From: Candidatus Poribacteria bacterium
GTDB taxonomy: Bacteria > Poribacteria > DTPJ01 > WJIO01
Assembly (NCBI GenBank): GCA_014730235.1
Contig: WJIO01000421.1
Span: 1 to 61,244, forward strand
DNA length: 61,244 nt
Direction of reading: 5' to 3'
In this document: positions 2,346 through 61,192 of the stretch, one piece after another
Numbering within the stretch: the first letter of the stretch is position 1
Layout of the letters: every line of letters begins with the position of its first letter
Made by a program: the position numbers and the translations under genes
The notes under the pieces: model-generated
The model's input: only the letters and a program-made list of their open reading frames with translations
Told to the model about the DNA's origin: nothing
The model's database searches: none

Positions 2346-2442
2346 TGCTATTCCGACTTGAGTGTGGAAATGTAAAAAACATTGTCTAATTAAAACAGAT
2401 AATATCTTTTTTAATTATTACCACACCAAACCCAAAAAAATC
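2346..2442. mobile_element. Degenerate ISL3-like MITE lacking the central hairpin
   Basis: TTCCGACTTGAGTGTGG...ATTATTACCACACCAAACCC arms; flanks AAAATATT / AAAATACT (7 of 8 match) resemble a target duplication. Confidence 0.6.
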
Positions 2443-2474
2443 AAAATACTTTATTTCCAAAGGAGGTATTAAAA

Positions 2475-3251: not shown

Positions 3252-3362
3252 TTTTATGTTACCGTATGAATAACTTAATTTATTGTGTATATCTTGAGCT
3301 TCAATAACCAGATTTTCTAATTTCAACTAAAATAATTAACATTTCTTGGAGGGAGAAAAATA

Positions 3363-41515: not shown

Positions 41516-42651
41516 ACCTTCTTAACCTCTCTATGCTCCAGAATACGGTTTATTTCTTTTACTCCTCCCTGGGTTAAAGCCCATTCATCTTCATTTATAT
41601 TTTGCACCAGTCCTCTCCGTTCAAGTTCTTCCAGGCTTCGTTCTACACCACCCTGACCCATGCTCATAGTATTAAGCACAGATGCGGGATGACCGTGAGA
41701 TAAATCCTCATGTTGTTCCGCCAGCATACCCAGATCCAACAACACAGCTTCCAGGCGCAGACGCCTGTTGTTGCGTCGCTCCCTGAACCAACGCCACAGC
41801 AATCCCCGATTTGGGGCCAGAGTCATGGATACTGCTACAACAAAACTTATACACAGTACTATAGTAGGGCCAGTGGGGAGATGTGCTGTTACACTGCTGA
41901 TAATTGCCCCACTCATACCAGCTAATGCGCCAAAAACTGCCGATAATGCCACCATCAAACCCAGCTTATCAGTCCACTGACGCGCTGACGCTGCCGGTGC
42001 AACTATCATGGCACTCATCAATACAACCCCTACAGTCTGAAGCCCCAGCACAATAGCCACCACTAGAAGTCCGGTAAGAATGAAATCCAGCTTTTTTATA
42101 GGAAAACCAAGGCTCGAACCAAACTCCGAATCAAAGCTCAGCAGCTTAAATTCCTTCCAGAATACCATCATAATGATTAATACAGCCGCTCCCAGCAAAC
42201 CCATGATAATAACATCCCGCTCCATAAGGGTTGCAGCCTGACCAAAAAGAAAATTATCCAGACCGGCTTGAGTCGCTTTAGGCATTTTCTGAATAAAAGT
42301 CAAAAGCACAAGACCAAAACCGAAAAATACCGAAAGCACTATGCCCAACGCGCTGTCATCTTTTATACGTGTCTTGTTGAGAACTGCCATGATAAACAAA
42401 GTTCCCACCCAACCTGCTGCCGCTGCTCCCAGGATAAGCACAAGTGGAGCTTTACTTCCGGTTAGAATAAAGGCGATAGCTATACCAGGCAGGGCGGCAT
42501 GGGACATGGCATCACCTAAAAGGCTTTGTTTTCGCAATACAGCATAAACACCTAAGGCCCCGCTGACAATTCCCAGTATGCCGGAACCCAGAGCGACAGT
42601 GCGCAAAGTATAGTCGAACATAAGACCTTTAAGTATTTGCATTAGATTCAT
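41512..42651 (-). CDS. troC: Mn/Zn/Fe ABC transporter permease (TroC/MntC-like) with C-terminal winged-helix extension
   Basis: [46 protein letters not shown]. Confidence 0.85.
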
Positions 42652-43445
42652 TGTTTATCACCATCTGACAAAGAATTCTTCTGCTCTTTCGATTCTCTGG
42701 AAAAAGCCACCCGACCTGCATAAGTCAGGTGCAGATTTTCGTCAGTAAATACCTCTGCTACAGGTCCACTGGCAATACTACGGACATTCAGGAGAGTTAC
42801 CCAGTCGAAATATTCAATAACCGTCTGTAAATCATGATGAACTACAGCAACAGTCCGACCATCGGAGCGCAATTGCTGTAAAAGTTCCACAATTGCCTTT
42901 TCTGTTGTAGCATCTACACCCTGAAAAGGCTCATCCATCAGGTACACTTTGGCATCCTGAACCAAAGCCCGGGCCAGGAATACCCTCTGTTGTTGGCCAC
43001 CGGAAAGCTGGCTTATCTGGCGATTGGCGAAGTCCTGCATCCTCACCTTTTCCAGGGCCTGCATGGCCAGTTCCCGATCTTCTCTGCCGGGACGGCGTAT
43101 CCATCCGATGATACCGTATCTACCCATCATTACCACATCAAGAACACTTGTAGGAAAATCCCAATCCACACTTTCCCTCTGTGGAACATAACCTACAAGG
43201 CTTCGTTGTTGTTGGTATGGCTTGCCGTATATAAGCACCTGGCCTGCCGCAGGTTTAACCAGACCAAGTATAGATTTAATCAGTGTTGTCTTACCTGCGC
43301 CGTTGGGACCTACGATAGCCATCAATACCCCCGGCGGAACATTCAGATCAATATCCCATAATACGGGTTTATCACGATAAGCAACGGTTAGATCGTCAAC
43401 TCTAATTGCTTTTATTTCTTCATTATCCATGTTTTCCTCTTCCAT
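42648..43445 (-). CDS. troB: Metal ABC transporter ATP-binding protein (TroB/MntB)
   Basis: Walker [17 protein letters not shown] signature, LMDEP, HHDL. Confidence 0.92.
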
Positions 43446-43453
43446 GAATTTTA

Positions 43454-44416
43454 TTATTCCAGCAGAGAATTCACAATGGTATCGATATTATGTTTAACCA
43501 TACCAATGTAAGTTCCTTCAGGTGTATTGGGGTTACCCATTGCGTCGGAAAATAATTCACCACCAATTTCCACATCAAAGCCCCTAGATTTAACTGCCGC
43601 CTGAACTGCCTCAATATTTCGTTGAGGTACAGATGATTCTACAAATATAGCCGGAATTTTTCGTTCGGCAATAAAACTGGCTAAACTCTGGACATCCGCG
43701 GTTCCAGCTTCTGAAGCAGTGCTTATTCCCTGCAATCCCCTTACTTCAAAACCATAAGCGCTTCCAAAATAATTAAAAGCATCATGGGCTGTAATCAAGA
43801 CCCTTTTTTCAGCAGGAACTTTTTCCGCCTGATTTTTGACATATTCATGTAATTGTTTCAGTTCGTTAATATATTTTTCGGCATTTTGCTCATAGGTTGT
43901 CTGATTTTTTGTATCCAACTGGATCAATGAGTTCTTAATAGTTTGGGCGGCAGTTATCCATAAAGATATATCAAACCATATATGGGGATCATGAGCACCT
44001 TCAAATCCTGGTGGTGATTTTAGCAGGGATGGATTTACATCCTTTGTTATCGCTACAGTTTTAATGCCTCTACCTTGCATCTGCTCAAATACCTCAGCCA
44101 TTTTTCCCTCAAGATGCAGACCGTTGTAGAATATAATATCGGCTTCAGAAAGCCGACGCATATCACCTGCACTGGCTTTATATAAATGGGGATCAACACC
44201 GGGGCCCATAAGTCCTGTTACCTGTATCAGATCACCGCCGATCATCTCTGTGGTATTGGTAATCATGCCTGTAGTAGTGACAATTTTTAATTTTCCCTGG
44301 GATTTATCGGTGGCAGCTTTTTTGTCTTCTTTTGAACAACCGTTTGTTATCAAAATAAAAACTGAAAATATAAAAATTAAAGCACAAAGTTTTGATAATG
44401 AGCTTTTTTTCATCAT
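43454..44416 (-). CDS. troA: Metal ABC transporter substrate-binding lipoprotein (TroA/MntA)
   Basis: Lipobox [41 protein letters not shown]; start taken at ATG 44416 with RBS. Confidence 0.9.
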
Positions 44417-44508
44417 ACATCCTTTCCCGGCAAATAATATCATTCTCTATCTTTGCTTGGTCATATTTTAACGACTACATAATGTAAATAACAGAAGATT
44501 AACAAGAT

Positions 44509-44647: not shown

Positions 44648-46567
44648 ATGGAGCAAAGCAAATTTAATTTAGGTCAGGATAAAAGATCCGTCGGTGTTAC
44701 CTGGAGAGCATTGCTGATAGGGATAATCCTTATTCCCATAAACGTATACTGGATTATGGATTCAGGTGGACAGGGCTATCCCACAACTGTATCCCTCTAT
44801 TTCAACGTTATCTTTTGTGTATTTTTATTAATAATTCTGAACCATATTACTAGTCGTATCTTTCCCAAATTAAGCTTCAGTCAGGGAGAATTACTGGCAG
44901 TTTACGTTATGCTTTCAGTATCCTCATCCATAGCTGGACATGATATGATGAGAGTCTTATCATCAATGCCAGCCCATCCGTTCTGGTATGCAACTCCCGA
45001 AAACGAATGGCAGGAGCTTTTTCATAGATATATACCCACATGGCTTTCTGTTTCAGATAAGAATATGCTGAACGACTACTTTAAGGGTGATTCCAGTTTT
45101 TACAGTATGCAAAACCTTAAATTCTGGCTTAAACCAGTGTTGTGGTGGAGTTCCTTTGTCTTTTGCCTACTTTTCGTTATGCTTTGTGTAAATACTATAG
45201 TCCGTCGTCAATGGACAGAACAGGAAAAGCTCAGTTATCCAATTATACAGTTGCCTTTGGAAATGACAACCAGCGGTGGTATAAAGGGTTTGATGCTGAA
45301 TAAGCTTATGTGGATCGGTTTTGGTTTGGCGGCTGTTGTAGATATAATAAATGGTCTTAATTTTCTGTATCCCTCCGTTCCCAGCATTGGCGGCAAATTA
45401 TACGACCTGCGACCTTTTTTTACTACAAAACCCTGGGATGCTATCGGTTGGACTCCTGTTGCTGTGTTTCCCTTTGCCATTGGCATTGCATTTTTCATAC
45501 CCCTTGATCTTTCCTTTTCATGCTGGTTCTTCTATTTATTCTGGAAGGTTCAGCGTATTCTCGGTTCAATTCTGGGACTCAGAAGTCTGCCGCGCTTTCC
45601 ATATATTGAAGAGCAGGCTTTTGGTGCATATATGGGATTATTTGTCATAGCCATATGGGCTACCAGAAAACATCTGATGGAAGTCATTAAGAAATTCTCC
45701 GGAATAAAATCCAGGGTTGATGATACCAAAGAACCGCTTCCCTACAGGTGGGCAGTTCTTGGTTTAATAGTCGCTTTTGCTTATCTGGTTGGATTTTGCT
45801 ATGTGGCCGGCATGTCCATATGGGTAGCAGTTTTATTTTTTGTAATATATTACGCAATTTCAACGGCAATATGCCGCATGAGGGCGGAATTAGGATCACC
45901 TGTCCACGATCTGCATTTCATTGGCCCTGATCAAACACTTCCCAAAATATTTGGCACTCGCCATCTGGGCGCAGCCAATCTTACCATGTTTGCATATCTT
46001 TATTTCTTCAACAGAGCATACAGAGGACACCCTATGCCGCATCAATTGGAGGGATTCAAGCTGGCCGAAAGGACAGGCATGAATTCCCGGCGGCTTCTTA
46101 TTGCAATGGTTATATCTGTTCCACTGGCGGCTCTGGCTTCGTTCTGGGCGCACCTGGATATATCCTATCGGGTTGGCGCGCCGGCCTGGTTTGCATGGGA
46201 ACCTTTTAACCGTCTCCAGAGCTTTTTATCCGCACCACAACCGCCGGATTATGGGGCAATTGTGGCATCCAACGTAGGATTTATTACCACGATTTTGTTG
46301 ATGTTTATGCGGGTTAAATTTTTCTGGTGGCCCTTTCATCCGGCCGGTTACGCTGTATCTAGTAGCTGGTCAATGAATGTGTTCTGGTTTTCCATAATGT
46401 TAAGCTTCTTTGCTAAGTATATCATAATGAAATCAGGTGGGATCAAGACACATAGAAAAGCTATTCCCTTTTTTCTTGGGCTTATACTGGGTGAATTTAT
46501 TGTGGGAAGCGTTTGGAGCATAATTGGTGTATCCATGCACAGACCCATGTATAGATTTCTATATTAA
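44648..46567 (+). CDS. DUF6785/DUF6784-type membrane protein, paralog 3
   Basis: Same motif series (WYATPENEWQ, QWTEQEKLSYP, RMRAELG, HPMPHQLEGFK, PFHPAGY). Confidence 0.75.
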   Translation: MEQSKFNLGQDKRSVGVTWRALLIGIILIPINVYWIMDSGGQGYPTTVSLYFNVIFCVFLLIILNHITSRIFPKLSFSQGELLAVYVMLSVSSSIAGHDMMRVLSSMPAHPFWYATPENEWQELFHRYIPTWLSVSDKNMLNDYFKGDSSFYSMQNLKFWLKPVLWWSSFVFCLLFVMLCVNTIVRRQWTEQEKLSYPIIQLPLEMTTSGGIKGLMLNKLMWIGFGLAAVVDIINGLNFLYPSVPSIGGKLYDLRPFFTTKPWDAIGWTPVAVFPFAIGIAFFIPLDLSFSCWFFYLFWKVQRILGSILGLRSLPRFPYIEEQAFGAYMGLFVIAIWATRKHLMEVIKKFSGIKSRVDDTKEPLPYRWAVLGLIVAFAYLVGFCYVAGMSIWVAVLFFVIYYAISTAICRMRAELGSPVHDLHFIGPDQTLPKIFGTRHLGAANLTMFAYLYFFNRAYRGHPMPHQLEGFKLAERTGMNSRRLLIAMVISVPLAALASFWAHLDISYRVGAPAWFAWEPFNRLQSFLSAPQPPDYGAIVASNVGFITTILLMFMRVKFFWWPFHPAGYAVSSSWSMNVFWFSIMLSFFAKYIIMKSGGIKTHRKAIPFFLGLILGEFIVGSVWSIIGVSMHRPMYRFLY

Positions 46568-46660
46568 TCATGCCTGAAAATATGTAAACCCTTTTTTTCA
46601 TTATGCGTTTTAAGAAGTCGTAAGCAAAGATAATTCCCTAACTTGATCAGGAGTTGTATA

Positions 46661-49600
46661 TTGCATAGCATATCCAAAATCCGGTGCGACAAGAAATTAA
46701 AATTATTTACCCCACCGTTATTTTTGTTGTATATAATCATTTATGGATTAACGGTTTTTTGTCCATCCTTTGCCAAAGAAGCTAAAACCGAATTATCAGC
46801 AAAAAAACATGATAAATTTAATATACATCTTTTGCAAAAAGACGAAACTCTATCCCATGTAGCTCTAAGATATTACAAGGATATTTCAATGGTAGGATTG
46901 CTGGCAAGGTATAATGATATAAACGATGTGCGGCGTATACCCGAAGGCAAAGAAATTAAAGTTCCCTATGAAATTTCATATACAATCAAACCCAATGATT
47001 CATTATCGGAGATAGCCCAGAAACTTCTGGGAAGCTGGCAGAAATACAGCATAATTGCTGAATATAATAAGCTGGAAGATCCCGGATTTGTGATCGCTGG
47101 TAGAGTTTTGAGGATACCGCTGCTTAAGCCTGATACTGAACCCCCAGAACCAGAAGCACCCCCTGCTGAAGTTGTGGAAGAAGACAAGCCAGAAGAACCT
47201 GAAAGAAAGAAAGTAGAAAAAGAATATCCAGTCGTTACCGAATCAGAAAAAGAAGAGAAAACCAAAGAGATAATAGAACCTACAAAAGAAACAGAAGAAG
47301 ATGTTTCCACAGAACCGGATGTAGATATAGAAAAAGAAACTAAACCGGAAACGGTGGTTGAGCCGCAGGAACCGGTTGAGGTAGAAACTGAAACCAAAGT
47401 TATTCCGGAAATATCCGAAGAACCCCCATCCCCTGCCTCAACGGAAGAATTAAAACAGGAAAAACCCAAAGACCATACCGCACCTATAGGCCCTATGCCT
47501 CAATCCAAATTCAGACTCGTCAGGGTAAAGCCAGATGATAAGGAAGAAGAAATCATACAGGAAGAATTTGGTGTGGAGCAGGAATGGCCCCTGGCCTCCC
47601 CCTGGGCCAGAAAAAAACTACAACCATCAGAAGAGGAAATAACCGAACCGGACAGGCTGTCGGCTGTATTGGATGCACTGAAAACCTGGGATCGTCCTAT
47701 TGAGGAATTAGAGGATAGCAAAAAAGCCCGATTTGACGAAAAGGGCATAAACCTGCCTATGGATTCACTGCTTCAGGTAACAGGATATAAATCCATCACA
47801 ATCCAGTATAATAAAACCCACTATTTTGGAAAATCCGATATAAACCGATACAGCGGATATTATTCCGGTGGCTATGGTTCAGGCTTTTATGATTATGATT
47901 ACGGTTATGATTCCTATGGTTACGGTAGTAGCTACAATAGCTACAGCAGTGGTTACAGCAGTTATGGAAGCGGCTACAGTTCCTCCAGGTATGGTTATGG
48001 CTATGGTCAACGAGAAGGCCCAAATATTGAACAGGAATTTGACATTCATATTCATGGACGAGTTGGTAAGCATACTCATGTGGATGTTGATTACAATGAT
48101 ACCGGCAGATCTCAATATGGCGGAATGGGTCAGAAGGAGCAGAAAATTTCTGTGTGGTATGAGGGCGATCCGGAGGATATAATCCAAAGAGCTGCATTCG
48201 GTGACATTCGCCTTGAATTACCCAACAGTCGCTTTCTTAATATGGGCAGAACCCTCTTTGGCGCACAAATGGTGGCAAAATTGGGTGATCTTAAATTAAC
48301 TGCCTTTGGAACCAGAACCAAAGGTATCAAAGGAACCTGGACATCCAAAGGTCAGTCCAGAAGGGCCGGAGGTGGAACCGGTACCAGGATCATGGATATT
48401 AATTATATTAAAGAAAGATATTATGCCATAAATGTGGATGAAGACGGTTTTATTAATGATTCGTATTTACCAATAGAAACAGGCAGCGAGCAGATTTATA
48501 TAGACGATGGTATCGGTACAAATAACGATTCAGGTATATCAACAGCCCAGGGATATTTCGACTATCAATACCCCGGTGATGATTACAGCATTGATTACTC
48601 TACCGGACAGATAGAATTTTTAAAGAATATATCCACAGGTTTTAAAATTGTGGTAGCTTACAGATATCGGGGTGGTGATGGTGGTTCTGTGGGTAATCCG
48701 GATTCTGTATTTGTGGATGATGATGATGATGGTATAACGGATGGATTAGACGATCCTGATGATCCTGTGGGTTATGTAGTTATAAAAGATTCAGCGGCTC
48801 ATGGTTCGGAACTGCGGAATGTATACAGTCTTGGAAACAGGAATATCGGCAGACGCAACTTTGAATTAAGCATCTGGCGTGAGGGTGCAACGGATTCTTT
48901 TGAAACAGGTGATGGTAAGGTAGCATATATACGTATATTCGGCTTGGATTCGGACAACGACGGTCTGGTTGATCCTGAACTTATAGACTTTGAAAGGGGA
49001 ATACTTACTTTCCCAAATCCCAAACCCTTTATCATTGATGATCCTGCAAGTCCTTATTATCAATACAGGGATGAATTAAATAACGAGGCAATATACTCAG
49101 AAAACCCCAACTATTCCGATCAGAAATACATTATCCAGGCGGATTATTCATACCAGACACCGAGTTTTTATCTTGGAAGATTAAATATAATACCTGAAAG
49201 TGAAGAAGTAAGGGTAAACGGTCAAAGATTGAATAGAAATACAGATTATATGATGATCTATGAGGTGGGCTCAGTAGAGATATTCAGGGAACTGGATGAA
49301 TATGACGAAATTACAATTGATTATGAATATATGCCTTTTGGCGGTCAATACCAGCAGACAATAGCAGGTATATGGGCTGAATATTCGTGGAAACCGGGCA
49401 AGAAAAAGGAAGAAAAGAAAAAAACTCACACAGATATGTATAGGGAAGACGGGGCCAGTCCCTTCTCCCAGGATACAGACAGCAGTGATTCCGACTACAG
49501 TCGTTATGGAAGCTCAAGCTCAAGTTTCGGTAACTATGGGTCTTTTGGCGGCAGCTATAATAGCTATGGAAGCAGTTATGGAAGTAATTACGGTAGTTAT

Positions 49601-52600
49601 GGTGGTTATGATAGCTTTAGTTCATATAGAGGCAGAAGAGGAAGTTTTGGATCAAGCCGGAGTTATGGTTCATCCCGCAGCAGTTTTTATACACCCCGAA
49701 CTGGTGAAGGCTTGAACCTCTCTATGGGATATGTATATAATACAGGAGAAAGAACTTCCGCAATTCCCGACGTTAATTCCGCTCCAAGTCGTCTCCAGGC
49801 TTTGGTATTTGGTGGAAACTGGGGTGATAAATTCAATATGGCCAGGGTTTTTGGACTTCTTCCCTTTGTATCAATAAAAGGCGAAGTGCCTTTTACGGTT
49901 TACCTGGATGGTGAAGCTGCCTATAGCCGTAATAATCCCAACAGCGTTGGCTATGCCATGATTGACAGTATGGAAGGTGCAAAAGAGAGCGCAAAAATGC
50001 CCACCTATAAGTTCTCCTGGAAAACTGCAAGCGTGCCAATGGATACGGAATCGGATAACGATATTTCAATTGATAACAGGGCGATTTTTCATATAGAAGA
50101 ATATGACGAAGATGCCAGCTACGGCAACTATATGAAAAACCGGGAAACCTCCGCTATTGAAATTAATCCCTTATCCAGAGCAACCCAGCAGCATCTTGTT
50201 ATGGAGATCGGGTATGATTTAAACGATGCTGCATCATGGGGAGCTTTAGCCTATCCTGTTTCTAACACCGGTGCAGATTTTAGCGAATATGAATTCCTTG
50301 AAATATGGATGAAGGTTGACGGTGATGAAAATGTAAATCTGCATCTGGATTTTGGTGTTATAAGTGAAGATACGGATGATGATTTTCGTTTGGATAGCGA
50401 AGACCTGCCCAGGGATATGCTCGACAGCAACGGTGATCATAAAATAGATATACTCGATCTGGATAAAGAAGACCTGCCGGAAGAGCATAAATATAAAGGG
50501 AACGGAAGCCTTGACCTGCGTGAAGATAACGGATGGGTCTACAACGATTTTAGTGGAAATGTAATTGACACTATTGGCAGGGAAAACTCGGTTCTGGATT
50601 CTGAAGACCTGGATGGAGACGTGGTATTGGATACAAACAATTCATATTTCGGTTTTACCATACCATTAAATAATATACCCAATGACTGGATCCGCAAAAA
50701 AACCAGCAAGACAGGATGGATATTCCTGAGTATACCTCTGGAAGAGGCTCTTCCAAAAGGACGTTCACCAAGCTGGGCAGTTATTAAGCATATGCGATTA
50801 TGGTTAGAGAAAAATATTCCCGGTTCTATAAATGGTAAATTCCAATGGTATTCAATAACTGTCGCTGGTAACAGATGGGAGAAAGGCCTTGTTGTTGAAA
50901 ATGAAACAGGCAAGCTTTCAGAAGATCTCACAAATGAAATTCTGGTTGGTACAAAAAACAACCACGAATTTGAAGATTACCTGGAAGAATACAGAAAGAT
51001 AGAGGATAACGAAGATTTTGATGTCCTGCATCCATATGTGGAAAGCGCATTTGGTCTGGAAAGCGACCAGAAAGAGCAATCATTAACTCTGAATTATGAT
51101 TTACAACCGGACACAACTGGTTACACCATGCGGGAATTATCCGGGGTTCGTCGTGGCGAAGGTCAGGATTTTTCAAAACATAGAGAGATGCGTATATGGT
51201 TGCATGGTGATGGTAGCGGTTTACCTTTCTTGATCAGGATGGGAAGCAATACCGATGATTTCGGAGCAGGAAGTCCTATAACAACAAAAGATGATGACAA
51301 TAACGATCCATATAACAATTATAACTATACTTATTCGTCATATTCATCAAGGTATGGAGCAAAAGGTTATTATGAGTATATCCTTCCCCTTGATTTTAAA
51401 GGATGGAAACTAATAAAAATATCATTTGCGGATAAAGATGATGATGGACATCCGGATGAATTAACGCCTATAAACGATCCTGCCATTAACAATATCCACG
51501 AAATACTTGTGGGTATTAAAAACGAATATCAGTATCCTGTAACAGGTGAAATATGGGTTAATGAAATACATTTAACAGATCCATTTGTCAAATCCGGCTG
51601 GGCAAGACGTTTTAATTTATCCGCAGATTTAGCCAATATTTTTGATATCAGAGCTGGTTATGCAAAGCAAGACAAGAATTTTGAAAATTCCGCAGGTCAA
51701 ACAGGCAGATCAAGCATGCGTTCTTATGGCTACAGCACCAGTAGTTATGATTATAATGTTGACACCCAATTTAAACTAATCTCATGGCTGCCTATGAGTT
51801 TTGGTATAAGTCACCGGGAATCGGAAAGCAGCAGTCTTTACGGAATAATCAGTTCCTATCAAAGCGGTCTAACAAAAACCGATAACAAGACTTTCAGCAT
51901 TAGCCTTGATAAAAGCCCTATCCCTCGGTTGTCTTTTTCATACGACAAGCAGAGACAGTGGAATGAAGTCAGAGGGGTGGAATTGAGTGACCTTTATTCA
52001 TCGGATGTGGGATATTCTCTTGGCAGTGTTTTGACAATTAACCTTGATTATTCCCATGAAGTATTGACAACGGAACAGGATTCATCGGAAGATGACACCA
52101 CTCCAACAAGTTCTTATTACTATTACGGCAGAGATACCGATACAATAGTTGACCGAGGCGGCATATCCCTTAGAATATCCCCTATAAAAAGCTTTAGCCT
52201 TGATCCATCTTATGAAGTCAGAAGGGAAATGGAGCGGGAGAAAGACGAAGATGACATAGAAGGTGGATTTCTTATTTCATCCAGAGACCAAAGAATATCC
52301 CTTAGACCGACCCTGAGAAAATTCTGGGGGGTTAAACCATCAATAAACGGCAGATATGGTTTCAGTGAAGACTGGTTTGGCGGCGAAAAGGACGTATCCC
52401 TCAACACAGATCTCGGTTTTGGGTTAAACTTTACCTTTAAGGACTGGTTTAAACCCAAGAAAGGGAAAGATGAACGAGGACGGGATAGGTTAACGGAATT
52501 GGGTAAAGATATTGACCTGTTGACTGAAGAAGACCTTCGCTCCCTGAGTGAGGAAGATATACAGGAACTCCTGGATGAAAAAACTCAGCAGGAACGGGGT

Positions 52601-53536
52601 AACTGGATCGAAAAGGAAAAGGATGAAATAAAGGAAAAGCTGCGTCAGCGAAAACTCGAGGAAGAAATGGATATAGAGCCTGATGCTGAAGGTGGTAATT
52701 TTGCCTTCCGGGCCTTAAAAAGAAGTGTATCAACTTTTTCCATTAATACTGATTTAAGATACAGTATCAATGACTACCTTCGCCGTTTAGATCCCACAAT
52801 GGGATTTTCGGATATAATGAAGCTGGAAGATGAATCCGAATTCCGAACAAGGTCTACCAAAACCAGAAGGTTTACCATCAGAGCAAATATGGATCCCATG
52901 ACGTGGGCTTCTCTGGGAACCAATATGTCACTAACCAACAGGTTTACTAAATCATCAGGAACAGCATCCGATTCTGATTCATCAACCGTTGGCGGCGATA
53001 TTAAAATATTTAGCTCTCAGACATCCTTTATGCTTAAATACAATATGACCACTCAGGATTCCAGCAACCAGAGCGGTAAAATATCCGACAGCATATCCCA
53101 TAATCCATCAGTTACTGTGCGAAAAAGCTGGTCTTCAGGAATCGGCTCATCTCTGGGATTTAGAATTACCTTCCGAGATTATGAACGTGGTGGAATAGAG
53201 ACAAGGTCAAGAATTTATGCACCAAACTTTAATATAGATTACGATCTGCATGTAAAGGGTGATGTTGATCTACCATTTGTACGCAAAATAAGCCTCGATC
53301 ATAATCTGGATATGAGCAATACAGTTTCAGTAATGGTACGTCGGGAAAAGCTGGGAATAAACCGGGATGAGAAATCAGAGCAGTATGGAACTTCTCTTGA
53401 TGTTAGTTATAATCTACGACAAACACTCAGAGCAAGTATGAGATTCTCTTTGGACTATAACCATGATAGGGTGGAAAAAGATGCAGATTATATATCTGTT
53501 TCAGGGTCCCTCATGCTAAGGGGTGAGTTTAGATAA
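46661..53536 (+). CDS. Giant SprA-like outer-membrane protein (T9SS translocon-like) with two N-terminal LysM domains
   Basis: AGGAG then TTG start at 46661; signal-like N-terminus; two LysM repeats; SprA-like segments (R.LFGAQ, NIIPESEEV.VNG..L.RN.DY, DFSEYEFLEIWM, ISEDTDDD..LDSED, EIWVNEIHL..P..GWA); amphipathic beta-strand C-terminus. Confidence 0.75.
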   Translation: MHSISKIRCDKKLKLFTPPLFLLYIIIYGLTVFCPSFAKEAKTELSAKKHDKFNIHLLQKDETLSHVALRYYKDISMVGLLARYNDINDVRRIPEGKEIKVPYEISYTIKPNDSLSEIAQKLLGSWQKYSIIAEYNKLEDPGFVIAGRVLRIPLLKPDTEPPEPEAPPAEVVEEDKPEEPERKKVEKEYPVVTESEKEEKTKEIIEPTKETEEDVSTEPDVDIEKETKPETVVEPQEPVEVETETKVIPEISEEPPSPASTEELKQEKPKDHTAPIGPMPQSKFRLVRVKPDDKEEEIIQEEFGVEQEWPLASPWARKKLQPSEEEITEPDRLSAVLDALKTWDRPIEELEDSKKARFDEKGINLPMDSLLQVTGYKSITIQYNKTHYFGKSDINRYSGYYSGGYGSGFYDYDYGYDSYGYGSSYNSYSSGYSSYGSGYSSSRYGYGYGQREGPNIEQEFDIHIHGRVGKHTHVDVDYNDTGRSQYGGMGQKEQKISVWYEGDPEDIIQRAAFGDIRLELPNSRFLNMGRTLFGAQMVAKLGDLKLTAFGTRTKGIKGTWTSKGQSRRAGGGTGTRIMDINYIKERYYAINVDEDGFINDSYLPIETGSEQIYIDDGIGTNNDSGISTAQGYFDYQYPGDDYSIDYSTGQIEFLKNISTGFKIVVAYRYRGGDGGSVGNPDSVFVDDDDDGITDGLDDPDDPVGYVVIKDSAAHGSELRNVYSLGNRNIGRRNFELSIWREGATDSFETGDGKVAYIRIFGLDSDNDGLVDPELIDFERGILTFPNPKPFIIDDPASPYYQYRDELNNEAIYSENPNYSDQKYIIQADYSYQTPSFYLGRLNIIPESEEVRVNGQRLNRNTDYMMIYEVGSVEIFRELDEYDEITIDYEYMPFGGQYQQTIAGIWAEYSWKPGKKKEEKKKTHTDMYREDGASPFSQDTDSSDSDYSRYGSSSSSFGNYGSFGGSYNSYGSSYGSNYGSYGGYDSFSSYRGRRGSFGSSRSYGSSRSSFYTPRTGEGLNLSMGYVYNTGERTSAIPDVNSAPSRLQALVFGGNWGDKFNMARVFGLLPFVSIKGEVPFTVYLDGEAAYSRNNPNSVGYAMIDSMEGAKESAKMPTYKFSWKTASVPMDTESDNDISIDNRAIFHIEEYDEDASYGNYMKNRETSAIEINPLSRATQQHLVMEIGYDLNDAASWGALAYPVSNTGADFSEYEFLEIWMKVDGDENVNLHLDFGVISEDTDDDFRLDSEDLPRDMLDSNGDHKIDILDLDKEDLPEEHKYKGNGSLDLREDNGWVYNDFSGNVIDTIGRENSVLDSEDLDGDVVLDTNNSYFGFTIPLNNIPNDWIRKKTSKTGWIFLSIPLEEALPKGRSPSWAVIKHMRLWLEKNIPGSINGKFQWYSITVAGNRWEKGLVVENETGKLSEDLTNEILVGTKNNHEFEDYLEEYRKIEDNEDFDVLHPYVESAFGLESDQKEQSLTLNYDLQPDTTGYTMRELSGVRRGEGQDFSKHREMRIWLHGDGSGLPFLIRMGSNTDDFGAGSPITTKDDDNNDPYNNYNYTYSSYSSRYGAKGYYEYILPLDFKGWKLIKISFADKDDDGHPDELTPINDPAINNIHEILVGIKNEYQYPVTGEIWVNEIHLTDPFVKSGWARRFNLSADLANIFDIRAGYAKQDKNFENSAGQTGRSSMRSYGYSTSSYDYNVDTQFKLISWLPMSFGISHRESESSSLYGIISSYQSGLTKTDNKTFSISLDKSPIPRLSFSYDKQRQWNEVRGVELSDLYSSDVGYSLGSVLTINLDYSHEVLTTEQDSSEDDTTPTSSYYYYGRDTDTIVDRGGISLRISPIKSFSLDPSYEVRREMEREKDEDDIEGGFLISSRDQRISLRPTLRKFWGVKPSINGRYGFSEDWFGGEKDVSLNTDLGFGLNFTFKDWFKPKKGKDERGRDRLTELGKDIDLLTEEDLRSLSEEDIQELLDEKTQQERGNWIEKEKDEIKEKLRQRKLEEEMDIEPDAEGGNFAFRALKRSVSTFSINTDLRYSINDYLRRLDPTMGFSDIMKLEDESEFRTRSTKTRRFTIRANMDPMTWASLGTNMSLTNRFTKSSGTASDSDSSTVGGDIKIFSSQTSFMLKYNMTTQDSSNQSGKISDSISHNPSVTVRKSWSSGIGSSLGFRITFRDYERGGIETRSRIYAPNFNIDYDLHVKGDVDLPFVRKISLDHNLDMSNTVSVMVRREKLGINRDEKSEQYGTSLDVSYNLRQTLRASMRFSLDYNHDRVEKDADYISVSGSLMLRGEFR

Positions 53537-53537
53537 T

Positions 53538-54137
53538 TTACCTTATTGCACTCCAGACTGTAAAAGTATATTTTGATCTTTCAATTAAAAAAGCTGGAGT
53601 ATTTGGCCTCCCGGGGGTAATAACAGAAAAGACGACAAAATCCATCTGATTGTTATCGGTATCAAGCCCGTCAGGTCGTCTTCCGATGCTGTATCCTGAA
53701 ATATCCAGAGTCGGTTCACCTTCCCCTGCAAAATTATTATCGACAAAATCGCCATATCCCACAGCGTCGGCAATTTCATTTCCCATATACAGCAATATAT
53801 TGTCAGGCCCGTTCTGAAAATTCACTTTAGGATTTACTACATCCGCATTTTCCACAGAATTGTCCTGAGCTACAACAAAGTAACCATCATGGGGTATTTC
53901 ATATCCTGCCAGTTCTATTCGGTTATATTCCTTTCCGCTGCCTCCATTAATCCCCAGGAGATAATATTCATCCAGGTTCATTCCCGGTTGTCCGGTCAAT
54001 TCAACAAAACAACCGGTATCAACTCCCGGAGAATCATAGAGGACTTCATTTATTACCAACCGGGCGAATACATAGTCAGAATAAAATAGGAAAAATAAAA
54101 TAAAAACAATGATTAAATTTTTTCGCCCCGCACACAT
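53538..54137 (-). CDS. Secreted lamin-tail-domain protein with TVWSAIR tail
   Basis: LVINEVLYDSPGVD..FVEL, FQNGPDN..L, SIGR.PDG.DTD.N..DF, TPG.PN. Confidence 0.75.
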   Translation of the reverse strand: MCAGRKNLIIVFILFFLFYSDYVFARLVINEVLYDSPGVDTGCFVELTGQPGMNLDEYYLLGINGGSGKEYNRIELAGYEIPHDGYFVVAQDNSVENADVVNPKVNFQNGPDNILLYMGNEIADAVGYGDFVDNNFAGEGEPTLDISGYSIGRRPDGLDTDNNQMDFVVFSVITPGRPNTPAFLIERSKYTFTVWSAIR

Positions 54138-55374: not shown

Positions 55375-55821
55375 TTAGCTGTTAAATTCGGTTGGGTAAC
55401 CGCTTTTTTCCCACTCAGGCAAGCCGCCTTTAAGAAGTTTAAGATATTTCCTGTCAAAACCCAGTTCCTCTTCCAGTAATTGCGCCGACCTGGCGCTTGT
55501 GGCTTCTGACAGTCAGCTACAATAGAGAATTATATCTTTATCCTCTGGCAGTTGATTAACTTTTTCCCGCAAACCATCGGGATAGCTCATCCACAGCGCA
55601 TCTGGTATATGGGATATATCGTAACTTTGTTTACCGCGTACATCCACTATCACAATATCAGCTTGAGAATCTATTAGCTTTTTCAACTCATGGACGGTAA
55701 TTCTCTCGTAATCAGTTGTATCGTTATTATCAACATTATCAACAGAATTAGATTTTCCACAGCCGAAAGACATCATCATAATGAAAAGTAAAACAATATT
55801 TATAATAATAAGTTTTTTCAT
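55375..55821 (-). CDS. Selenocysteine-containing rhodanese-like lipoprotein (in-frame TGA at 55513-55515)
   Basis: Lipobox SFGC, IVDVRG...Y...HIP.A, then ILYCS-TGA-LSEATSARSAQLL...LLKGGLPEWEKSGYP to TAA at 55375-55377, 2 nt before the rsmD ATG; SECIS-like hairpin downstream. Confidence 0.85.
55482..55496 (-). promoter_or_regulatory. Bacterial SECIS element apical hairpin
   Basis: GCGCC-AGGUC-GGCGC starting 16 nt after the UGA; the loop matches the AGGUC of the E. coli fdhF SECIS. Confidence 0.75.
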
Positions 55822-55822
55822 G

Positions 55823-56749
55823 TTAAATTTTTCCAATAAGGTTTAATTGATCAATAAATTTCTGGGGTATCAAACCTGATATATCTATAGGAACATCCCA
55901 GGTGACAACGCCGCCTTTAGAATTTACATCCTTAGTATAACCAACTACGAATTCATCCACAAACCGGGGTTCACCGTGTCCCCAACGTTCCCCAAGATAG
56001 CTGAGTATGTGATACTGCGTTCCGTTCAGCCACCGGTTTGGGCAGATAGGAAATATTGTCGATATTTCCCCGGCTGTATAATCTTCATATTCCGTCAGGG
56101 TTATTACAGGGGTTTTAACTCCCGGATTAAAAGCTATTATGCTTTCGGGATTTCCGACTTTCAGGGCATAGGCAAAGCTCTTAAAGTTTGGCGGATCATC
56201 ATGTCTATACATTTCATCGGAGAAATAGCACCCGTCAATCCACCATCCATGAACCTTATTTCCCCATCTTAAAGACCATTCCCTTATTATCTTTTCCCAT
56301 TTTAACTGGAACTCGGCCAGTCGTTTGCCTGTTCTCTTTGGCCCACCTGAAGGCCATTGCCCTTCATAACCCCATTCCCATCCCAGACGTTCCATAGCTA
56401 CAGGATCAGCCGCCGGTGCACCGCTGGGTAGATAGACCATAAGCCTGATACCCTCTTTGGTCAAAGCATCTGCCAGTTCCATGATGAGATCGCGCTTTGA
56501 GCATTTGCTGGGTTTTATGCCCACAAAGGAATCATAGGTATCGTTAGGGGAACAATAATGACCGGAGTTTTGCCCTATGGTTATGAAATAATATGGAGTT
56601 CCTGTTGCTTTTAGCTGTTCTACCAGTCCATCTACGTTGAAATTATCAATCTGTGAATTCCAAACTTCTGCTGTGGTTTCTTTTCCTGTCAAATAGTGAG
56701 TAAAAACACCCCATTTAGCATCTTTGAACCAGTCTGTATTTGATTTCAT
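55823..56749 (-). CDS. Alpha-L-fucosidase-like glycoside hydrolase (GH29-like)
   Basis: WFKDAKWGVFTHY, RDL..ELADAL...G.R...Y, GWWIDG; start taken at ATG 56749 downstream of the hairpin; no signal peptide. Confidence 0.7.
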   Translation of the reverse strand: MKSNTDWFKDAKWGVFTHYLTGKETTAEVWNSQIDNFNVDGLVEQLKATGTPYYFITIGQNSGHYCSPNDTYDSFVGIKPSKCSKRDLIMELADALTKEGIRLMVYLPSGAPAADPVAMERLGWEWGYEGQWPSGGPKRTGKRLAEFQLKWEKIIREWSLRWGNKVHGWWIDGCYFSDEMYRHDDPPNFKSFAYALKVGNPESIIAFNPGVKTPVITLTEYEDYTAGEISTIFPICPNRWLNGTQYHILSYLGERWGHGEPRFVDEFVVGYTKDVNSKGGVVTWDVPIDISGLIPQKFIDQLNLIGKI

Positions 56750-56789
56750 GGTTTCTTTTCTTAATTTATGGTATTTGGTGAAAAGCACA

Positions 56790-56826
56790 CAATGACCGCC
56801 CCGATTGAAAATCGGGGCGGTCATTG
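56790..56826. terminator. Perfect 17-bp palindrome with CAATGAC...GTCATTG ends after queD
   Basis: CAATGACCGCCCCGATT-GAA-AATCGGGGCGGTCATTG. Confidence 0.65.
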
Positions 56827-57223: not shown

Positions 57224-58114
57224 CTACATACCGGCAGCTTCCAGAATATCAGGAACTTTGTCCTCTTTGCCTATGGCCATGATATGCACACCGTCACAGA
57301 TTTTTTCGTCTTTAATCTCCTTTATCATGCGACCGGCGATCTCAATACCCTTTCTAAGGGCATTACCTTTGCCCTTAGGCACATTTGCCATTTCGTCTAT
57401 AAGTTCGTCAGGAACGAATATGCCCGGTACGTTGGCGTTCATAAATTTGGCCATCCTTGACGACACCAGAAGAACCAGTCCGGCCAGTATTTTAACATCA
57501 AACTGTCGTGCATATTTCATGAAATCTTTGAATCTTTCCAGATCATATATGGCCTGGGTCTGGAAAAACTCAGCACCGGCTTCAACTTTCTTCTCAAACT
57601 TCATCAACTGGGGTTCGATAGGGTTAGCCTCTGGTGTGACGATAGCACCAACGCAAAATTCCACAGCACCCTCTAATTCATTGCCGCCCAGATCAAATCC
57701 GGATTCCATGGTTCGCACCATCTTTACAAGCTGGACAGAATCCAGATCAAACACGCTTTTGGCTTCCTTGTGATCACCAACTTTAATGGAGTCACCTGTG
57801 AGGCACAGGACATTCCTAACTCCGCCGTAATAGGCAGCCAGAAGGTCTGACTGAAGGGCCAAACGATTTCTATCCCGACCCGTCATCTGAAGCACTGGTT
57901 CGCCGCCCCGGCCTTTTATCATTATTGATGTGGAAACAGACGGAAAGCGCATGACCGAACTCTGGTTATCGGTTACATTGAGGGCGTGTATCCTGTCTTT
58001 TAAGAGGTCGATGTGATGCAGCATGCTTTCCAGGTTAGTTCCCTTTGGAGGCCCGATCTCTGCTGTTACAACAAATTCACCGGAATTGAGTACTTCCCTG
58101 AAGGGTTTAGGCAT
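57224..58114 (-). CDS. metF: Methylenetetrahydrofolate reductase, catalytic subunit
   Basis: TAEIGPPKG, NVTDN, Q.T.RDRNR.ALQSDLL, N.LCLTGD, KK.EAGAEFFQTQ, DGVHIM. Confidence 0.92.
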   Translation of the reverse strand: MPKPFREVLNSGEFVVTAEIGPPKGTNLESMLHHIDLLKDRIHALNVTDNQSSVMRFPSVSTSIMIKGRGGEPVLQMTGRDRNRLALQSDLLAAYYGGVRNVLCLTGDSIKVGDHKEAKSVFDLDSVQLVKMVRTMESGFDLGGNELEGAVEFCVGAIVTPEANPIEPQLMKFEKKVEAGAEFFQTQAIYDLERFKDFMKYARQFDVKILAGLVLLVSSRMAKFMNANVPGIFVPDELIDEMANVPKGKGNALRKGIEIAGRMIKEIKDEKICDGVHIMAIGKEDKVPDILEAAGM

Positions 58115-58779
58115 TATTCTGACTCCTCTCTGCTTCCAATCAAAACTTTACCTGGTTTATCAACTTTTTGATGGTTACGGGGTGGATAGTATTTTTTCAT
58201 GGAATCCAATTTCCCCAGTTCCTCAAGACGTTTATAGATAAGAGTCCACGCACAGTCTTTTTCTGGATCTTCCTCACATTTACCATCGTTTGTTCCACCA
58301 CACGGCCCGTTAAGCAATCCTTTGGCACATTTGGTAACAGGACAAATTCCGCCTGTATATGCGATTACACAGTCACCACACTGCTGGCACACTTCGGCAA
58401 ATAGACCGAATTCTCCGCCCTCTTTGCCAATAAACAGGGTATCCAGGGCCGGATATGTGGGTTTATCCGAAAAAGAAGCCACAGTCTGAGTACCAAAAGC
58501 GCAGGCCATAACCAGAATGGAATCGGCTTTTTCAATTTTATCGGCCTGATCCTTCAGGGCATCATTAGTTAAATCGTCGCATGTAGTGGGTATAACCATC
58601 CAACCTACAACTTCTTTTCCTGCTTCCTGGAGCTTTTCCTTCATCTCCAGGACTTCATACTTGCCGCCGGTATGGCACATAGTGGCACATGTCCCGCAGC
58701 CTATAATATATACTTTTTCGTCTTTTTCAAGACATTCCTGAATTTGATCAAAGCTTTTCTGCTCTGTAATAGTCTTCAT
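58114..58779 (-). CDS. metV: Methylenetetrahydrofolate reductase small Fe-S/Zn subunit (MetV)
   Basis: GC.TCA..C..GG...V, CA.G.Q, CQQCGDC......GGICPV..CAKGLLNGPCGG..DGKCE......CAW; overlaps the metF start. Confidence 0.88.
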   Translation of the reverse strand: MKTITEQKSFDQIQECLEKDEKVYIIGCGTCATMCHTGGKYEVLEMKEKLQEAGKEVVGWMVIPTTCDDLTNDALKDQADKIEKADSILVMACAFGTQTVASFSDKPTYPALDTLFIGKEGGEFGLFAEVCQQCGDCVIAYTGGICPVTKCAKGLLNGPCGGTNDGKCEEDPEKDCAWTLIYKRLEELGKLDSMKKYYPPRNHQKVDKPGKVLIGSREESE

Positions 58780-58804
58780 TAAACCACCTCATGATTAAGA
58801 GGAT

Positions 58805-60010
58805 TTAAACTTTCACTTTATCGTTTACTCGTGATTCATATTCTTCTCTGTAAAATTCCATTGTATCAACAACAGAATTTGGCGCAGCCTGTCCTAATCC
58901 ACACAGGGAAGTAAGGGCCATGGTTTCCGAAAGGTCTTCCAGGAATTCCAAATCGATTCTGGATGCTGTACCTTCGGTAAGACGTTCCAGTATTTCCAGC
59001 ATGCGCTTTGTTCCTTCGCGACATGGAAAGCACTTTCCACAGGATTCCTCTTCAAAGAATTCCGCGTTCTTTTTCACCATCTCTATGACATCCCTGGTGT
59101 TATTAAAGACCAGCACACCACCTGCGCCTAATACTGTCTCAAATGTAAGCGGTGTATCAATATTTTCAAAAGGCACGATCCTGCCGGATGCGCCGCCTAC
59201 CTGCACCATTTTCACGTTTTCAGCGCCGGCTAAATCTTCCACTAGCTCTTTCAGGGAGCTACCCATGACCATCTCATATACACCGGGTTTGTTTACATCA
59301 CCGGAGACTGAAAGAACCTTTGTACCTTTACTGCTTTCGGTTCCTATGCTGTTGAACCATTCTTTGCCTTCAGCCATTATACGGGGGATGTTCATCAAAG
59401 TTTCCACGTTGTTGACGATAGTAGGCTTTCCCCACAGGCCTTCTGATGGCGGAAAAGGTGGTCGGGGACGGGAGTCACCCCGTTTTCCTTCTATGGATTC
59501 GATCAAAGCCGTTTCTTCACCGCAGACATAAGCACCTGCACCCTCGTATATTATAATATTAACATGGTCAAGGAATCCTTTGTCCTTAGTCTGATCTATG
59601 GCGTTTTGCAGGTTTTCCAGCAGGTAATGATATTCGGCTCTCAGGTATATGAAGGCTTCTTTCGCACCAATGGCATAACTGGCAATTGCAACAGCCTCAA
59701 TCAGACTAAATGGGTCTTCTTCCAGGATCACCCGATCCTTGAAAGTGCCTACCTCGCCTTCATCTGCATTGCAGATTACATATTTTTCATCACCTTTAGC
59801 TTTGCTGGCAAAATCCCATTTTAAACCTGTGGGAAAACCAGCACCGCCGCGACCTCTCAGGTTTGAGTCTTTGATTTCCTGTATGACTTCCGACGGCGTC
59901 ATATCCATTGCCTTTTTCAATCCGGCAAAGCCACCGTTGGAAATAAAGCTTTCTATATCTTTTGGGTCAATAACCCCGCAGTTTTTTAAAACAACTCGCT
60001 TCTCTGGCAT
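58805..60010 (-). CDS. NuoF/HoxF-like NADH-binding flavoprotein subunit, short form
   Basis: LRGRGGAGFPTG.KW, CNADEGE.GTFKDR, GAGAYVCGEET.L.ES.EG, PT..NNVET, ESCGKC.PCREG, CGLG; no C-terminal ferredoxin domain. Confidence 0.9.
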   Translation of the reverse strand: MPEKRVVLKNCGVIDPKDIESFISNGGFAGLKKAMDMTPSEVIQEIKDSNLRGRGGAGFPTGLKWDFASKAKGDEKYVICNADEGEVGTFKDRVILEEDPFSLIEAVAIASYAIGAKEAFIYLRAEYHYLLENLQNAIDQTKDKGFLDHVNIIIYEGAGAYVCGEETALIESIEGKRGDSRPRPPFPPSEGLWGKPTIVNNVETLMNIPRIMAEGKEWFNSIGTESSKGTKVLSVSGDVNKPGVYEMVMGSSLKELVEDLAGAENVKMVQVGGASGRIVPFENIDTPLTFETVLGAGGVLVFNNTRDVIEMVKKNAEFFEEESCGKCFPCREGTKRMLEILERLTEGTASRIDLEFLEDLSETMALTSLCGLGQAAPNSVVDTMEFYREEYESRVNDKVKV

Positions 60011-60040
60011 TAAGATCCTCCTGATGAGCGGAGTTGAGAG

Positions 60041-60487
60041 CTACTTATATTCTTTAAGAATCTCGATAACTTTTTCTGAAGTCAGATTACCGTATATTTT
60101 ATCATTTATCATCATTGCAGGGGCTTTGTCACAAGCTCCAATACAGTTAGTCAACTGTAGAGAGAATTTATTATCTTCGGTAGTCTGACCTATACCAATA
60201 CCCAGTTCTTTCTCCACCGTTTCTACTATTACATCACAGCTTTTGAGAAAGCATGGGGTGCTTTTACATATTCTTATAACATTTTCGCCAAGAAGCCCTG
60301 TGGAAAGGAAGGAATAAAAAGTCGCTACCTCGTATACTTCATTTATGGAAACTCCTAATCCCTCTGCCACTTGAGATATGGCTTCTTCCGGGAGATACCT
60401 GCATTTTTCCTGCACGTCTTTTAATACCGACAATATGCTGGTATTGTTATTGTGCCGGTTCAGCACCTCCTCAACGACCTTTTCCAT
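60041..60487 (-). CDS. NuoE/HoxE-like [2Fe-2S] subunit
   Basis: EVATFYS, CKSTPC and C.GACD.AP.M.IND thioredoxin-like [2Fe-2S] motifs. Confidence 0.9.
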   Translation of the reverse strand: MEKVVEEVLNRHNNNTSILSVLKDVQEKCRYLPEEAISQVAEGLGVSINEVYEVATFYSFLSTGLLGENVIRICKSTPCFLKSCDVIVETVEKELGIGIGQTTEDNKFSLQLTNCIGACDKAPAMMINDKIYGNLTSEKVIEILKEYK

Positions 60488-60514
60488 TACATACCTCCTG
60501 ATGGAATATCGGGT

Positions 60515-61192
60515 TTAACCAGTTATTAAAAGGGGTTTTCCCTTCTTTTTCCCGGCGAATTGTTCTTCCTTCTTTGTAAGAGCGCCAACCGGACATACTT
60601 CCACGCAAACGTCACAGGATTTACATACATCTTCCAGCGCTTGGTCTGTATCAACGGTCACATTGGAATCAAAACCTCTTCCTACTATCCCCAGAACACC
60701 CTCTTCTTTCAACTCCCGACAAGCCCTTACACATCTACGGCACATTATGCACTTGGTCATATCCCGGACAATATATGGATTAATTTCATCAGGAACATAG
60801 TAATGCTTTTTACCTTTAGCGCGGGTCAACGTCATACCCAGATCCGCTGCGATTTTACGAAGGTCGCAAATATTGGCTTTATCACACATCAGGCAGTCAC
60901 CGGAATGATCCGCAAATACTAATTCCAGTATTGCTTTTCGGGCTTTTATTACCTTGGGGGAGTGAGTTTGAACATCCATTCCCCGGCTTATTGGAGTATG
61001 GCAAGAAGCGACCAGGGTTCTGGAACCTTTTACTTCTACTACACATATACGACATGAACCTGTTGGAGTTAAGTCTGAAAGATAACATAAGGTGGGAATT
61101 TCTATGCCGTTTTCCTCGGCCAGTTCTAATATAGTCATTCCCTCTGAACCTTTTACATAAACTCCATTCAGAGTTAGTTCTACTTCACCCAT
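60515..61192 (-). CDS. HoxU / NuoG-N-terminal-like Fe-S subunit without a catalytic domain
   Basis: IPTLC...GSCRIC.VE...LVASC ([2Fe-2S]), HSGDCLMC...NIC (His-ligated cluster), CIMCRRCVRAC and CKSCDVCVEVCP (two [4Fe-4S]). Confidence 0.88.
   Translation of the reverse strand: MGEVELTLNGVYVKGSEGMTILELAEENGIEIPTLCYLSDLTPTGSCRICVVEVKGSRTLVASCHTPISRGMDVQTHSPKVIKARKAILELVFADHSGDCLMCDKANICDLRKIAADLGMTLTRAKGKKHYYVPDEINPYIVRDMTKCIMCRRCVRACRELKEEGVLGIVGRGFDSNVTVDTDQALEDVCKSCDVCVEVCPVGALTKKEEQFAGKKKGKPLLITG

Follow-up and report, generated by a model that had tools for sequence, protein, structure and literature searches.

A probable selenoprotein gene of the Cys-x-Sec rhodanese type, concealed by an in-frame UGA in a Candidatus Poribacteria contig

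Background

Does the TGA at codon 103 of a small rhodanese gene directly upstream of rsmD terminate that gene, or is it read as selenocysteine (Sec)? The gene lies on the minus strand of the 61,244-nucleotide stretch of Candidatus Poribacteria DNA analysed here (the window). The gene caller ends its ORF at this TGA (55513-55821, 102 aa), and the public protein database entry for the gene (P0001) is the same short form, although the TGA is the single interruption of a minus-strand frame of 148 codons (Table 1). A preliminary description of the locus had proposed that a selenoprotein is hidden here, the frame continuing for 45 codons past the TGA and ending 2 nt before rsmD, with a GCGCC-AGGUC-GGCGC hairpin placed 16 nt after the UGA. 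Its coordinates and sequence details proved correct throughout, and the hairpin was re-read at the expected place.

The local gene arrangement is consistent with a longer gene. The ATG of rsmD is found at 55372, and with read-through of the TGA the rhodanese gene is separated from its two neighbours by 1 and 2 nt, fitting into a run of minus-strand genes with gaps of 30 nt or less; without read-through, 138 nt of non-coding sequence would be left in the middle of this run.

Table 1. Features of the predicted selenoprotein gene (window positions; hairpin and codon features are read on the minus strand)
Feature	Position	Strand	Remarks
Complete predicted selenoprotein gene	55375..55821	-	148 codons (147 sense codons and the Sec-UGA), then TAA
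Start codon ATG	55821	-	
Predicted signal peptide, MKKLIIINIVLLFIMMMSFG/C	55759..55821	-	lipobox-like SFGC at 55770-55759; lipidation predicted at Cys21
Rhodanese homology domain, residues 42-139	55405..55698	-	PF00581, 57.6 bits, E 1.9e-15
Cys101 codon TGT	55519..55521	-	opens the C-S-U motif
In-frame TGA, codon 103, predicted selenocysteine	55513..55515	-	preceded by Tyr100, Cys101 and Ser102
Predicted SECIS core hairpin GCGCC-AGGUC-GGCGC	55482..55496	-	16 nt 3' of the UGA
Parts of the hairpin	GCGCC 55496-55492; AGGUC 55491-55487; GGCGC 55486-55482	-	
Post-UGA tail, LSEATSARSAQLLEEELGFDRKYLKLLKGGLPEWEKSGYPTEFNS (LSEATS...TEFNS)	55378..55512	-	45 sense codons; includes the GG..W..GYPTE motif
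Terminal stop TAA	55377-55375	-	

Results and discussion

The region downstream of the UGA completes a rhodanese domain

Translation through the UGA yields a clear member of Pfam family PF00581 (57.6 bits against a gathering cutoff of 22.2). With the tail included the match extends over positions 1-101 of the 102-position Rhodanese profile, as opposed to 1-69 for the truncated product, which agrees with the earlier suggestion that the tail completes the fold. The AF2 model of the full-length protein has a pLDDT above 95 across residues 40-148, and in this model the tail contributes a helix (107-118), a strand (127-130) and a second helix (133-139). Foldseek matches the model to rhodanese structures with a probability of 1.00; its best neighbours are the single-domain rhodaneses BH2092, YgaP, Alr3790 and Wolinella Sud (1qxn), and the closest single-domain matches superpose with an RMSD of 1.6-1.9 Å. 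The gene product, as modelled, is a protein of the rhodanese fold. In an alignment of 11 full-length database homologues (alignment A1), the tail holds invariant residues at S109, A113, L116, G132, G133 and W137, together with the motif GYPTE.

Cysteine and UGA recur at the UGA column in relatives

If the UGA encodes selenocysteine, a cysteine would be expected at this position in homologues, and this is what is found in all 11 full-length database homologues, which carry the motif YCxC. When genomes were scanned at one per species, 80 related loci were retrieved, and among the closest of these column 103 is TGA in 16 and TGC or TGT in 8. The TGA-type loci come from many Acidobacteriota, Pyrinomonadaceae and Terriglobia, as well as from a Desulfobacca acetoxidans MAG and a Dehalococcoidales MAG. 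A neighbour-joining tree places the window protein with the Sec-type clade and not with the Cys-type clade characterized by CDC.HEED.

In many Acidobacteriota (L005, L008, L010, L012-L014 and L016, at approximately 2398-3399 in each) a longer protein, of about 333 aa, carries the CxU Sec-rhodanese as its C-terminal domain, and its N-terminal half matches DedA-family membrane proteins. One locus nested within these DedA fusions, L006, has TGT and is therefore of the Cys form. A further locus, L072, appears truncated or frameshifted upstream.

The same truncation seen in the window gene recurs in protein databases. With the truncated product as query, exhaustive HMMER searching gave 1077 relatives, and among the best 150 cluster representatives at 50% identity, which were the ones inspected, 26 end precisely at "...YC-x" and 7 end just before the first Cys. 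The top-scoring proteins against this truncated query include giant proteins (P0013-P0017) of up to 2327 aa with as many as 13 rhodanese-like repeats. A scan of metagenome contigs with a single protein returned only one contig (L081), which was rejected as it encodes an unrelated SseA-like rhodanese.

The closest relative of the window protein (P0018, on contig L082; 73% identity) shares the TGA and has an intact tail of 44 codons, and its TGA is followed by the same hairpin with the loop AGUUC. The arrangement of TGA, intact tail and hairpin is repeated on three more contigs (L084-L086). On a fourth (L087) the tail is also intact but the motif is U-S-U, with two in-frame TGAs; this site (L087:1037-1045, ENA ERZ23498652) reads F-Y-U-S-U and has the same hairpin 16 nt past the second TGA. 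Six further cluster representatives end before the first Cys column, and one of them, P0133, resembles a different, UxxG-type form.

The closest full-length relative (L083:67-495; P0027, ENA ERZ23498361) has neither Sec nor Cys at this column. Its codon there is AGA (Arg), giving YCSRPAEQ..., and only 4 weaker pairs are left of the decayed hairpin. To judge from the aligned codons, this looks like a replacement of Sec by Arg in which Cys101 was kept, and Sec would therefore seem to be dispensable in some members of the family.

A conserved hairpin follows the UGA

In the bacterial SECIS (bSECIS) model, the element has a loop of 3-9 nt on a stem of 4-16 bp; a G within the first two nucleotides of the loop is followed by G or U, the loop lies 16-37 nt past the UGA, and the folding energy is -7.5 kcal/mol or lower (PMC13188914). 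When these constraints were applied by hand, the window hairpin fell within all four: its loop of 5 nt is carried on a stem of 5 bp, the loop begins with A-G-G (the G at position 2 being followed by a second G), the apical loop starts 21 nt past the UGA, and the energy is -8.3 kcal/mol.

The distribution of the hairpin follows that of the TGA codon in most relatives. A stable ungapped hairpin (-7 kcal/mol or better) is present 14-16 nt past the UGA in 14 of the 16 TGA-type genome loci, and the other two, both from Pyrinomonadales, have a variant with a one-nucleotide bulge. Among the 8 Cys-type loci, a hairpin at this register is absent or weak in 6. The exceptions are L006, which lies inside the Sec clade and retains a stable remnant (-7.1 kcal/mol), and L049, in which a hairpin occurs at another spacing.

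An ungapped alignment of 16 sequences shows the stem at a constant register across phyla, with 95% of cells paired; when the register is slid, pairing falls to 26-59%. Compensatory changes are seen in two of the five pairs, G-C to C-G at pair 1 and C-G to U-A at pair 2, and since both changes at pair 2 are synonymous third-position changes, covariation at that pair goes beyond what the protein sequence would impose. None of 500 shuffled alignments matched the observed pairing, number of double changes or covariation score. All but one of the 16 aligned sequences have a G as the first or second loop nucleotide. Hairpins of this kind are otherwise infrequent: a comparable one follows only 24 of the 2217 TGAs in the window (1.1%), and when the tail is recoded synonymously the hairpin survives in only 1.0% of cases. 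The proposal that this element is a SECIS is thus strengthened by conservation with covariation as well as by agreement with the bacterial model. Relative to shuffled sequence, the SECIS region does not fold with a significantly better energy (z-scores of +0.85 and -0.16), and the support for the hairpin is therefore comparative and not energetic. Rfam gave no match, to SECIS and tRNA-Sec families or to any other, in the whole window at the gathering threshold, and only chance snoRNA matches in the region 55380-55600 at E values up to 10.

The hairpin had also been called fdhF-like, a comparison that holds in part. Like the SECIS of Escherichia coli fdhF, it lies within the coding sequence directly 3' of the Sec-UGA, and the two have the loop letters CAGGUC in common. 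The E. coli element, the sequence of which was verified in 5419 genomes before it was folded, is however a helix of about 40 nt from the UGA with GGUC at nt 22, whereas in the window a hairpin of 5 bp has its GGUC at nt 26. A bulged U is a defining feature of the fdhF SECIS. The window element has no conserved or supported lower helix, so that the long lower helix and the bulged U do not form part of the likeness. Nor are the loop letters themselves maintained: the closest relative has AGUUC, loops such as GGUGC and AGGAU occur in other relatives, and the conserved part is limited to N-G-[G/U].

Decoding of the UGA

The substitution pattern downstream of the UGA is that of a coding region. Compared with that of L082, the tail of the window gene shows a pN of 0.11 against a pS of 0.64 (omega about 0.08), no frameshift, and 8, 5 and 17 differences at first, second and third codon positions, respectively; the region before the UGA has a pN of 0.145 with pS saturated. 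On this sequence comparison, the tail is under purifying selection, and the excess of pS over pN indicates that it is translated in both the window and L082 lineages.

A translated tail could in principle also result from read-through of the UGA with a standard amino acid, be it through a suppressor or allo-tRNA, through recoding as Trp, Gly or Cys, or through a reassignment such as those of codes 4 and 25. This is improbable. TGA ends 7 of the 48 genes in the window, including the adjoining rsmD, and a global reassignment of UGA is therefore not indicated; a scan of the whole window found no other gene with an in-frame TGA in a real gene frame. In addition, the UGA stands where homologues have a redox Cys, the conserved hairpin at a fixed distance is the signature of SelB-dependent decoding, and the closest curated family (NF041203, see below) is annotated as a selenoprotein family.

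It is more improbable still that the gene is a pseudogene, in which a recent nonsense mutation changed TGY to TGA in a Cys-x-Cys rhodanese and left the tail to decay. Homologues of the Cys type do exist, and the machinery for Sec insertion is not visible in the window: a Pfam scan of 30 window ORFs, which took in all but about 17 shorter ones, detected no selA, selB or selD domain, and no tRNA, tRNA-Sec included, was found within the 61 kb. A recent mutation is nevertheless difficult to reconcile with the presence of the same TGA in L082 despite near-saturated synonymous divergence, with the low omega of a tail free of frameshifts, or with the recurrence of the TGA across dozens of lineages together with a conserved and covarying hairpin. 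The evidence that the tail is translated in both lineages disposes of this reading, and equally of a sequencing or assembly error (TGY to TGA) in the window contig, a most improbable event given that the TGA is found at the same codon on independent contigs from other samples (L082, L084-L087 and the 16 genome loci) and is accompanied on all of them by the SECIS-like hairpin. Just as hard to credit is a functional product of 102 residues, with no role for the downstream region other than at the RNA level or as a small ORF of its own, since this agrees with the output of gene callers (P0001) but would leave the rhodanese fold about one third incomplete (two helices and one strand are missing, and the profile is covered at 1-69 of 102), would not explain a tail that evolves as an in-frame protein, and would require a small ORF to start in a tail that has no in-frame ATG or GTG and a sole TTG 15 codons from its end.

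The gene is very probably a genuine selenoprotein gene in which UGA103 is decoded as Sec, as the preliminary description had supposed; the Cys at the corresponding column of homologues, the recurrent TGA, the selection on the tail and the conserved hairpin all point in this direction. Decoding would proceed via SelB and Sec-tRNA(Sec), with SelB recruited by the minimal hairpin within the coding sequence 16 nt past the UGA.

Export signals and cellular location

The N-terminus of the predicted protein consists of MKK, a hydrophobic run of 14 residues (LIIINIVLLFIMMM) and SFGC. This last motif matches a permissive lipobox pattern of the PROSITE PS51257 kind and does not match the strict pattern [LVI][ASTVI][GAS]C. 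L084-L087 and P0027 retain the lipobox-site Cys with G or A before it, and motifs at this site in relatives are ILSGC, AIEGC, TAAGC, IISGC and IIAAC. Canonical lipoboxes occur in L009, L011, L015 and L018-L020, and at least 14 of the 26 cluster representatives that end at YC-x have a lipobox by pattern. As the lipobox Cys recurs across relatives in this way, predicted export seems to be the rule in this family.

The 148-residue precursor would probably be exported through the Sec pathway and lipidated on Cys21, and the lipidated protein would probably be anchored in the membrane, facing the periplasm. An extracytoplasmic location had been considered less usual for a Sec enzyme. This does not hold for the present family, in which export and lipoprotein signals are the norm, and there is a precedent in MccSep, for which the status of a Sec-exported periplasmic selenoprotein has been established experimentally (PMC13510729).

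The active-site loop and possible functions

The mature protein, of about 128 residues, would be a single rhodanese domain with the active-site loop Cys101-Ser-Sec103. When aligned by hhalign with canonical rhodaneses having the loop CRSGNRS, Cys101 falls on the catalytic Cys and the loop has a two-residue insertion. The AF2 model agrees with this placement of Cys101, with a strand at 96-100, a loop at 101-106 and a helix from 107 on (DSSP assignment). The phmmer alignment with 6mxv, on the other hand, puts U103, not Cys101, at the canonical catalytic position. Cys101 and Sec103 would most likely form a pair of nucleophile and resolving residue, passing through a selenenylsulfide or a Se-S-S(-) adduct. 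Candidate substrates are sulfane sulfur, polysulfide, thiosulfate or the oxyanions of selenium or tellurium outside the cytoplasm, by analogy with Sud, PspE or ExtH.

A more specific possibility, which we put forward tentatively and consider rather unlikely as a whole, is that the window protein and those of L082 and L084-L087 make up a distinct, uncurated subfamily of LYCSU lipoproteins in which a Cys101-Sec103 selenenylsulfide forms within the two-residue-longer loop. Such proteins might act as extracytoplasmic thiol/selenol oxidoreductases or as polysulfide or selenite reductases rather than as persulfide-carrying sulfurtransferases. If this were the case, the UxU and CxR variants would represent an ongoing tuning of Cys-Sec chemistry.

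Other genes in the window

Several other genes of the window deserve mention. The gene at 15939-18500 (minus strand), in which no in-frame TGA was seen, encodes a multihaem cytochrome c of 853 aa that includes a thioredoxin-fold region similar to AhpC/TSA; it is followed by a small ORF and then by a gene for a ferric-reductase-like FAD/NAD membrane protein at 13949-15244 (minus strand); the cytochrome and ferric-reductase-like genes may constitute an extracytoplasmic redox module. At the edge of the window, the minus-strand cluster at 57224-61192 comprises metF, metV (MTHFR C-terminal domain), nuoF-like and nuoE-like genes and a gene for a 225-aa 2Fe-2S/4Fe-4S protein resembling the N-terminus of NuoG. 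The window ends 52 nt beyond this cluster, and just past the edge there may be the gene for a catalytic subunit, for example a formate dehydrogenase or hydrogenase, which could be a selenoprotein as well.

Two proteins of about 630 aa (7440-9356 and 9576-11468, both minus strand) carry FlgD_ig and Por_Secre_tail domains, the latter being a C-terminal sorting domain of the T9SS. Sulfatases are encoded at 23115-24521 and 37165-38667, and a fucosidase-like gene is found at 55823-56824. Taken together, the T9SS-sorted proteins, the sulfatases and the fucosidase-like gene suggest a polysaccharide degrader of the FCB group. Three paralogues of about 640 aa have DUF6785 and DUF6784 domains with E values down to 1e-175; two of these are adjacent (30733-32655 and 32764-34683, minus strand) and the third (44648-46567, plus strand) adjoins a ZnuABC-type transporter cluster at 40409-44443. 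The plus strand also carries a 2297-aa ORF with a TTG start (46643-53536), followed by a gene for a lamin-tail-domain protein (53538-54137).

Placement among known selenoproteins

The best NCBIfam match of the window protein is NF041203, "rhodanese_LYCAU, rhodanese-related (seleno)protein" (E 1.2e-22), to which it aligns over profile positions 15-124 of 126. Its LYCSU fits the L-Y-C-x-U motif of that family, with Sec two residues past the Cys. The score is 80.0 bits when Cys is placed at U and 73.1 bits with X, below the curated equivalog cutoff of 115, and the nearest relatives of the window protein score 79-84 bits. Because both the protein and these relatives fall below the cutoff, they seem to form a sister subfamily, LYCSU. 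The Desulfobacca locus (L011) encodes a true member of NF041203, which scores 157.4 bits, reads LYCAU and has the lipobox PLAC; the hairpin is the same there.

The Cys-x-Sec rhodanese has been reviewed as the "rhodanese form 3, CxU" selenoprotein family, and the same family is listed as "COG0607 form 2, CxU" among predicted selenoproteins (PMC9312934). The CxU rhodanese family is thus already catalogued, as a predicted selenoprotein family, both in reviews and in NCBIfam, and the window gene is a new predicted member of this catalogued type, belonging to the LYCSU subfamily.

Family, motif and SECIS type having all been catalogued, no new principle emerges from this locus. Its main value lies in the correction of a systematic mis-annotation, as gene callers stop at 102 aa and NF041203 misses the protein (80 against 115 bits), with the consequence that the whole LYCSU subfamily is systematically mis-annotated. 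Since at least 26 clusters at 50% identity share the truncation, exported Cys-x-Sec rhodanese lipoproteins appear to be a common predicted class of extracytoplasmic selenoproteins. The gene also flags its source organism as a probable user of Sec, and the comparative set of Sec, Cys, Arg and double-Sec variants, along with the SECIS covariation, should be useful for probing the function of Cys-x-Sec rhodaneses.

Comparison with known systems

The closest known system is the NF041203 family, with which the window protein shares the single rhodanese domain, the L-Y-C-x-U motif, the UGA at the same column and the C-terminal motif GYPTE. Its member at the Desulfobacca locus has the same GCGCC-N5-GGCGC hairpin 16 nt downstream as the window gene, and a lipoprotein signal peptide. 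The window protein differs from this family in reading LYCSU...EEELGF and in having a longer linker between helix and strand. The representative of NF041203 is TKB26178.1.

Other rhodanese selenoproteins likewise have Sec in or beside the active-site loop. These are form 1 (UxxS), forms 2 and 4 (UxxG) and form 5, TsoB (UxxxxU) (PMC13188914), along with the UxU form of Olavius symbionts (PMC1976440), the form also shown by L087. They differ from the window protein in motif and in the position of Sec, which in the latter is two residues past a conserved Cys.

Small exported rhodanese domains are also found in the polysulfide-sulfur transferase Sud of Wolinella, in PspE of E. coli and in the lipoprotein ExtH of Geobacter (NF040901), the last of which gives a weak N-terminal match to the window protein. 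No conserved operon partner was seen on the contigs of the relatives, nor any operon context in common with Sud, PspE or ExtH. In these three proteins a single catalytic Cys sits in a six-residue loop, whereas in the window protein Cys-x-Sec occupies a loop with two extra residues in the profile alignment. By analogy, it is plausible that Sud and ExtH are functional counterparts of the predicted selenoprotein in extracytoplasmic sulfur and selenium chemistry.
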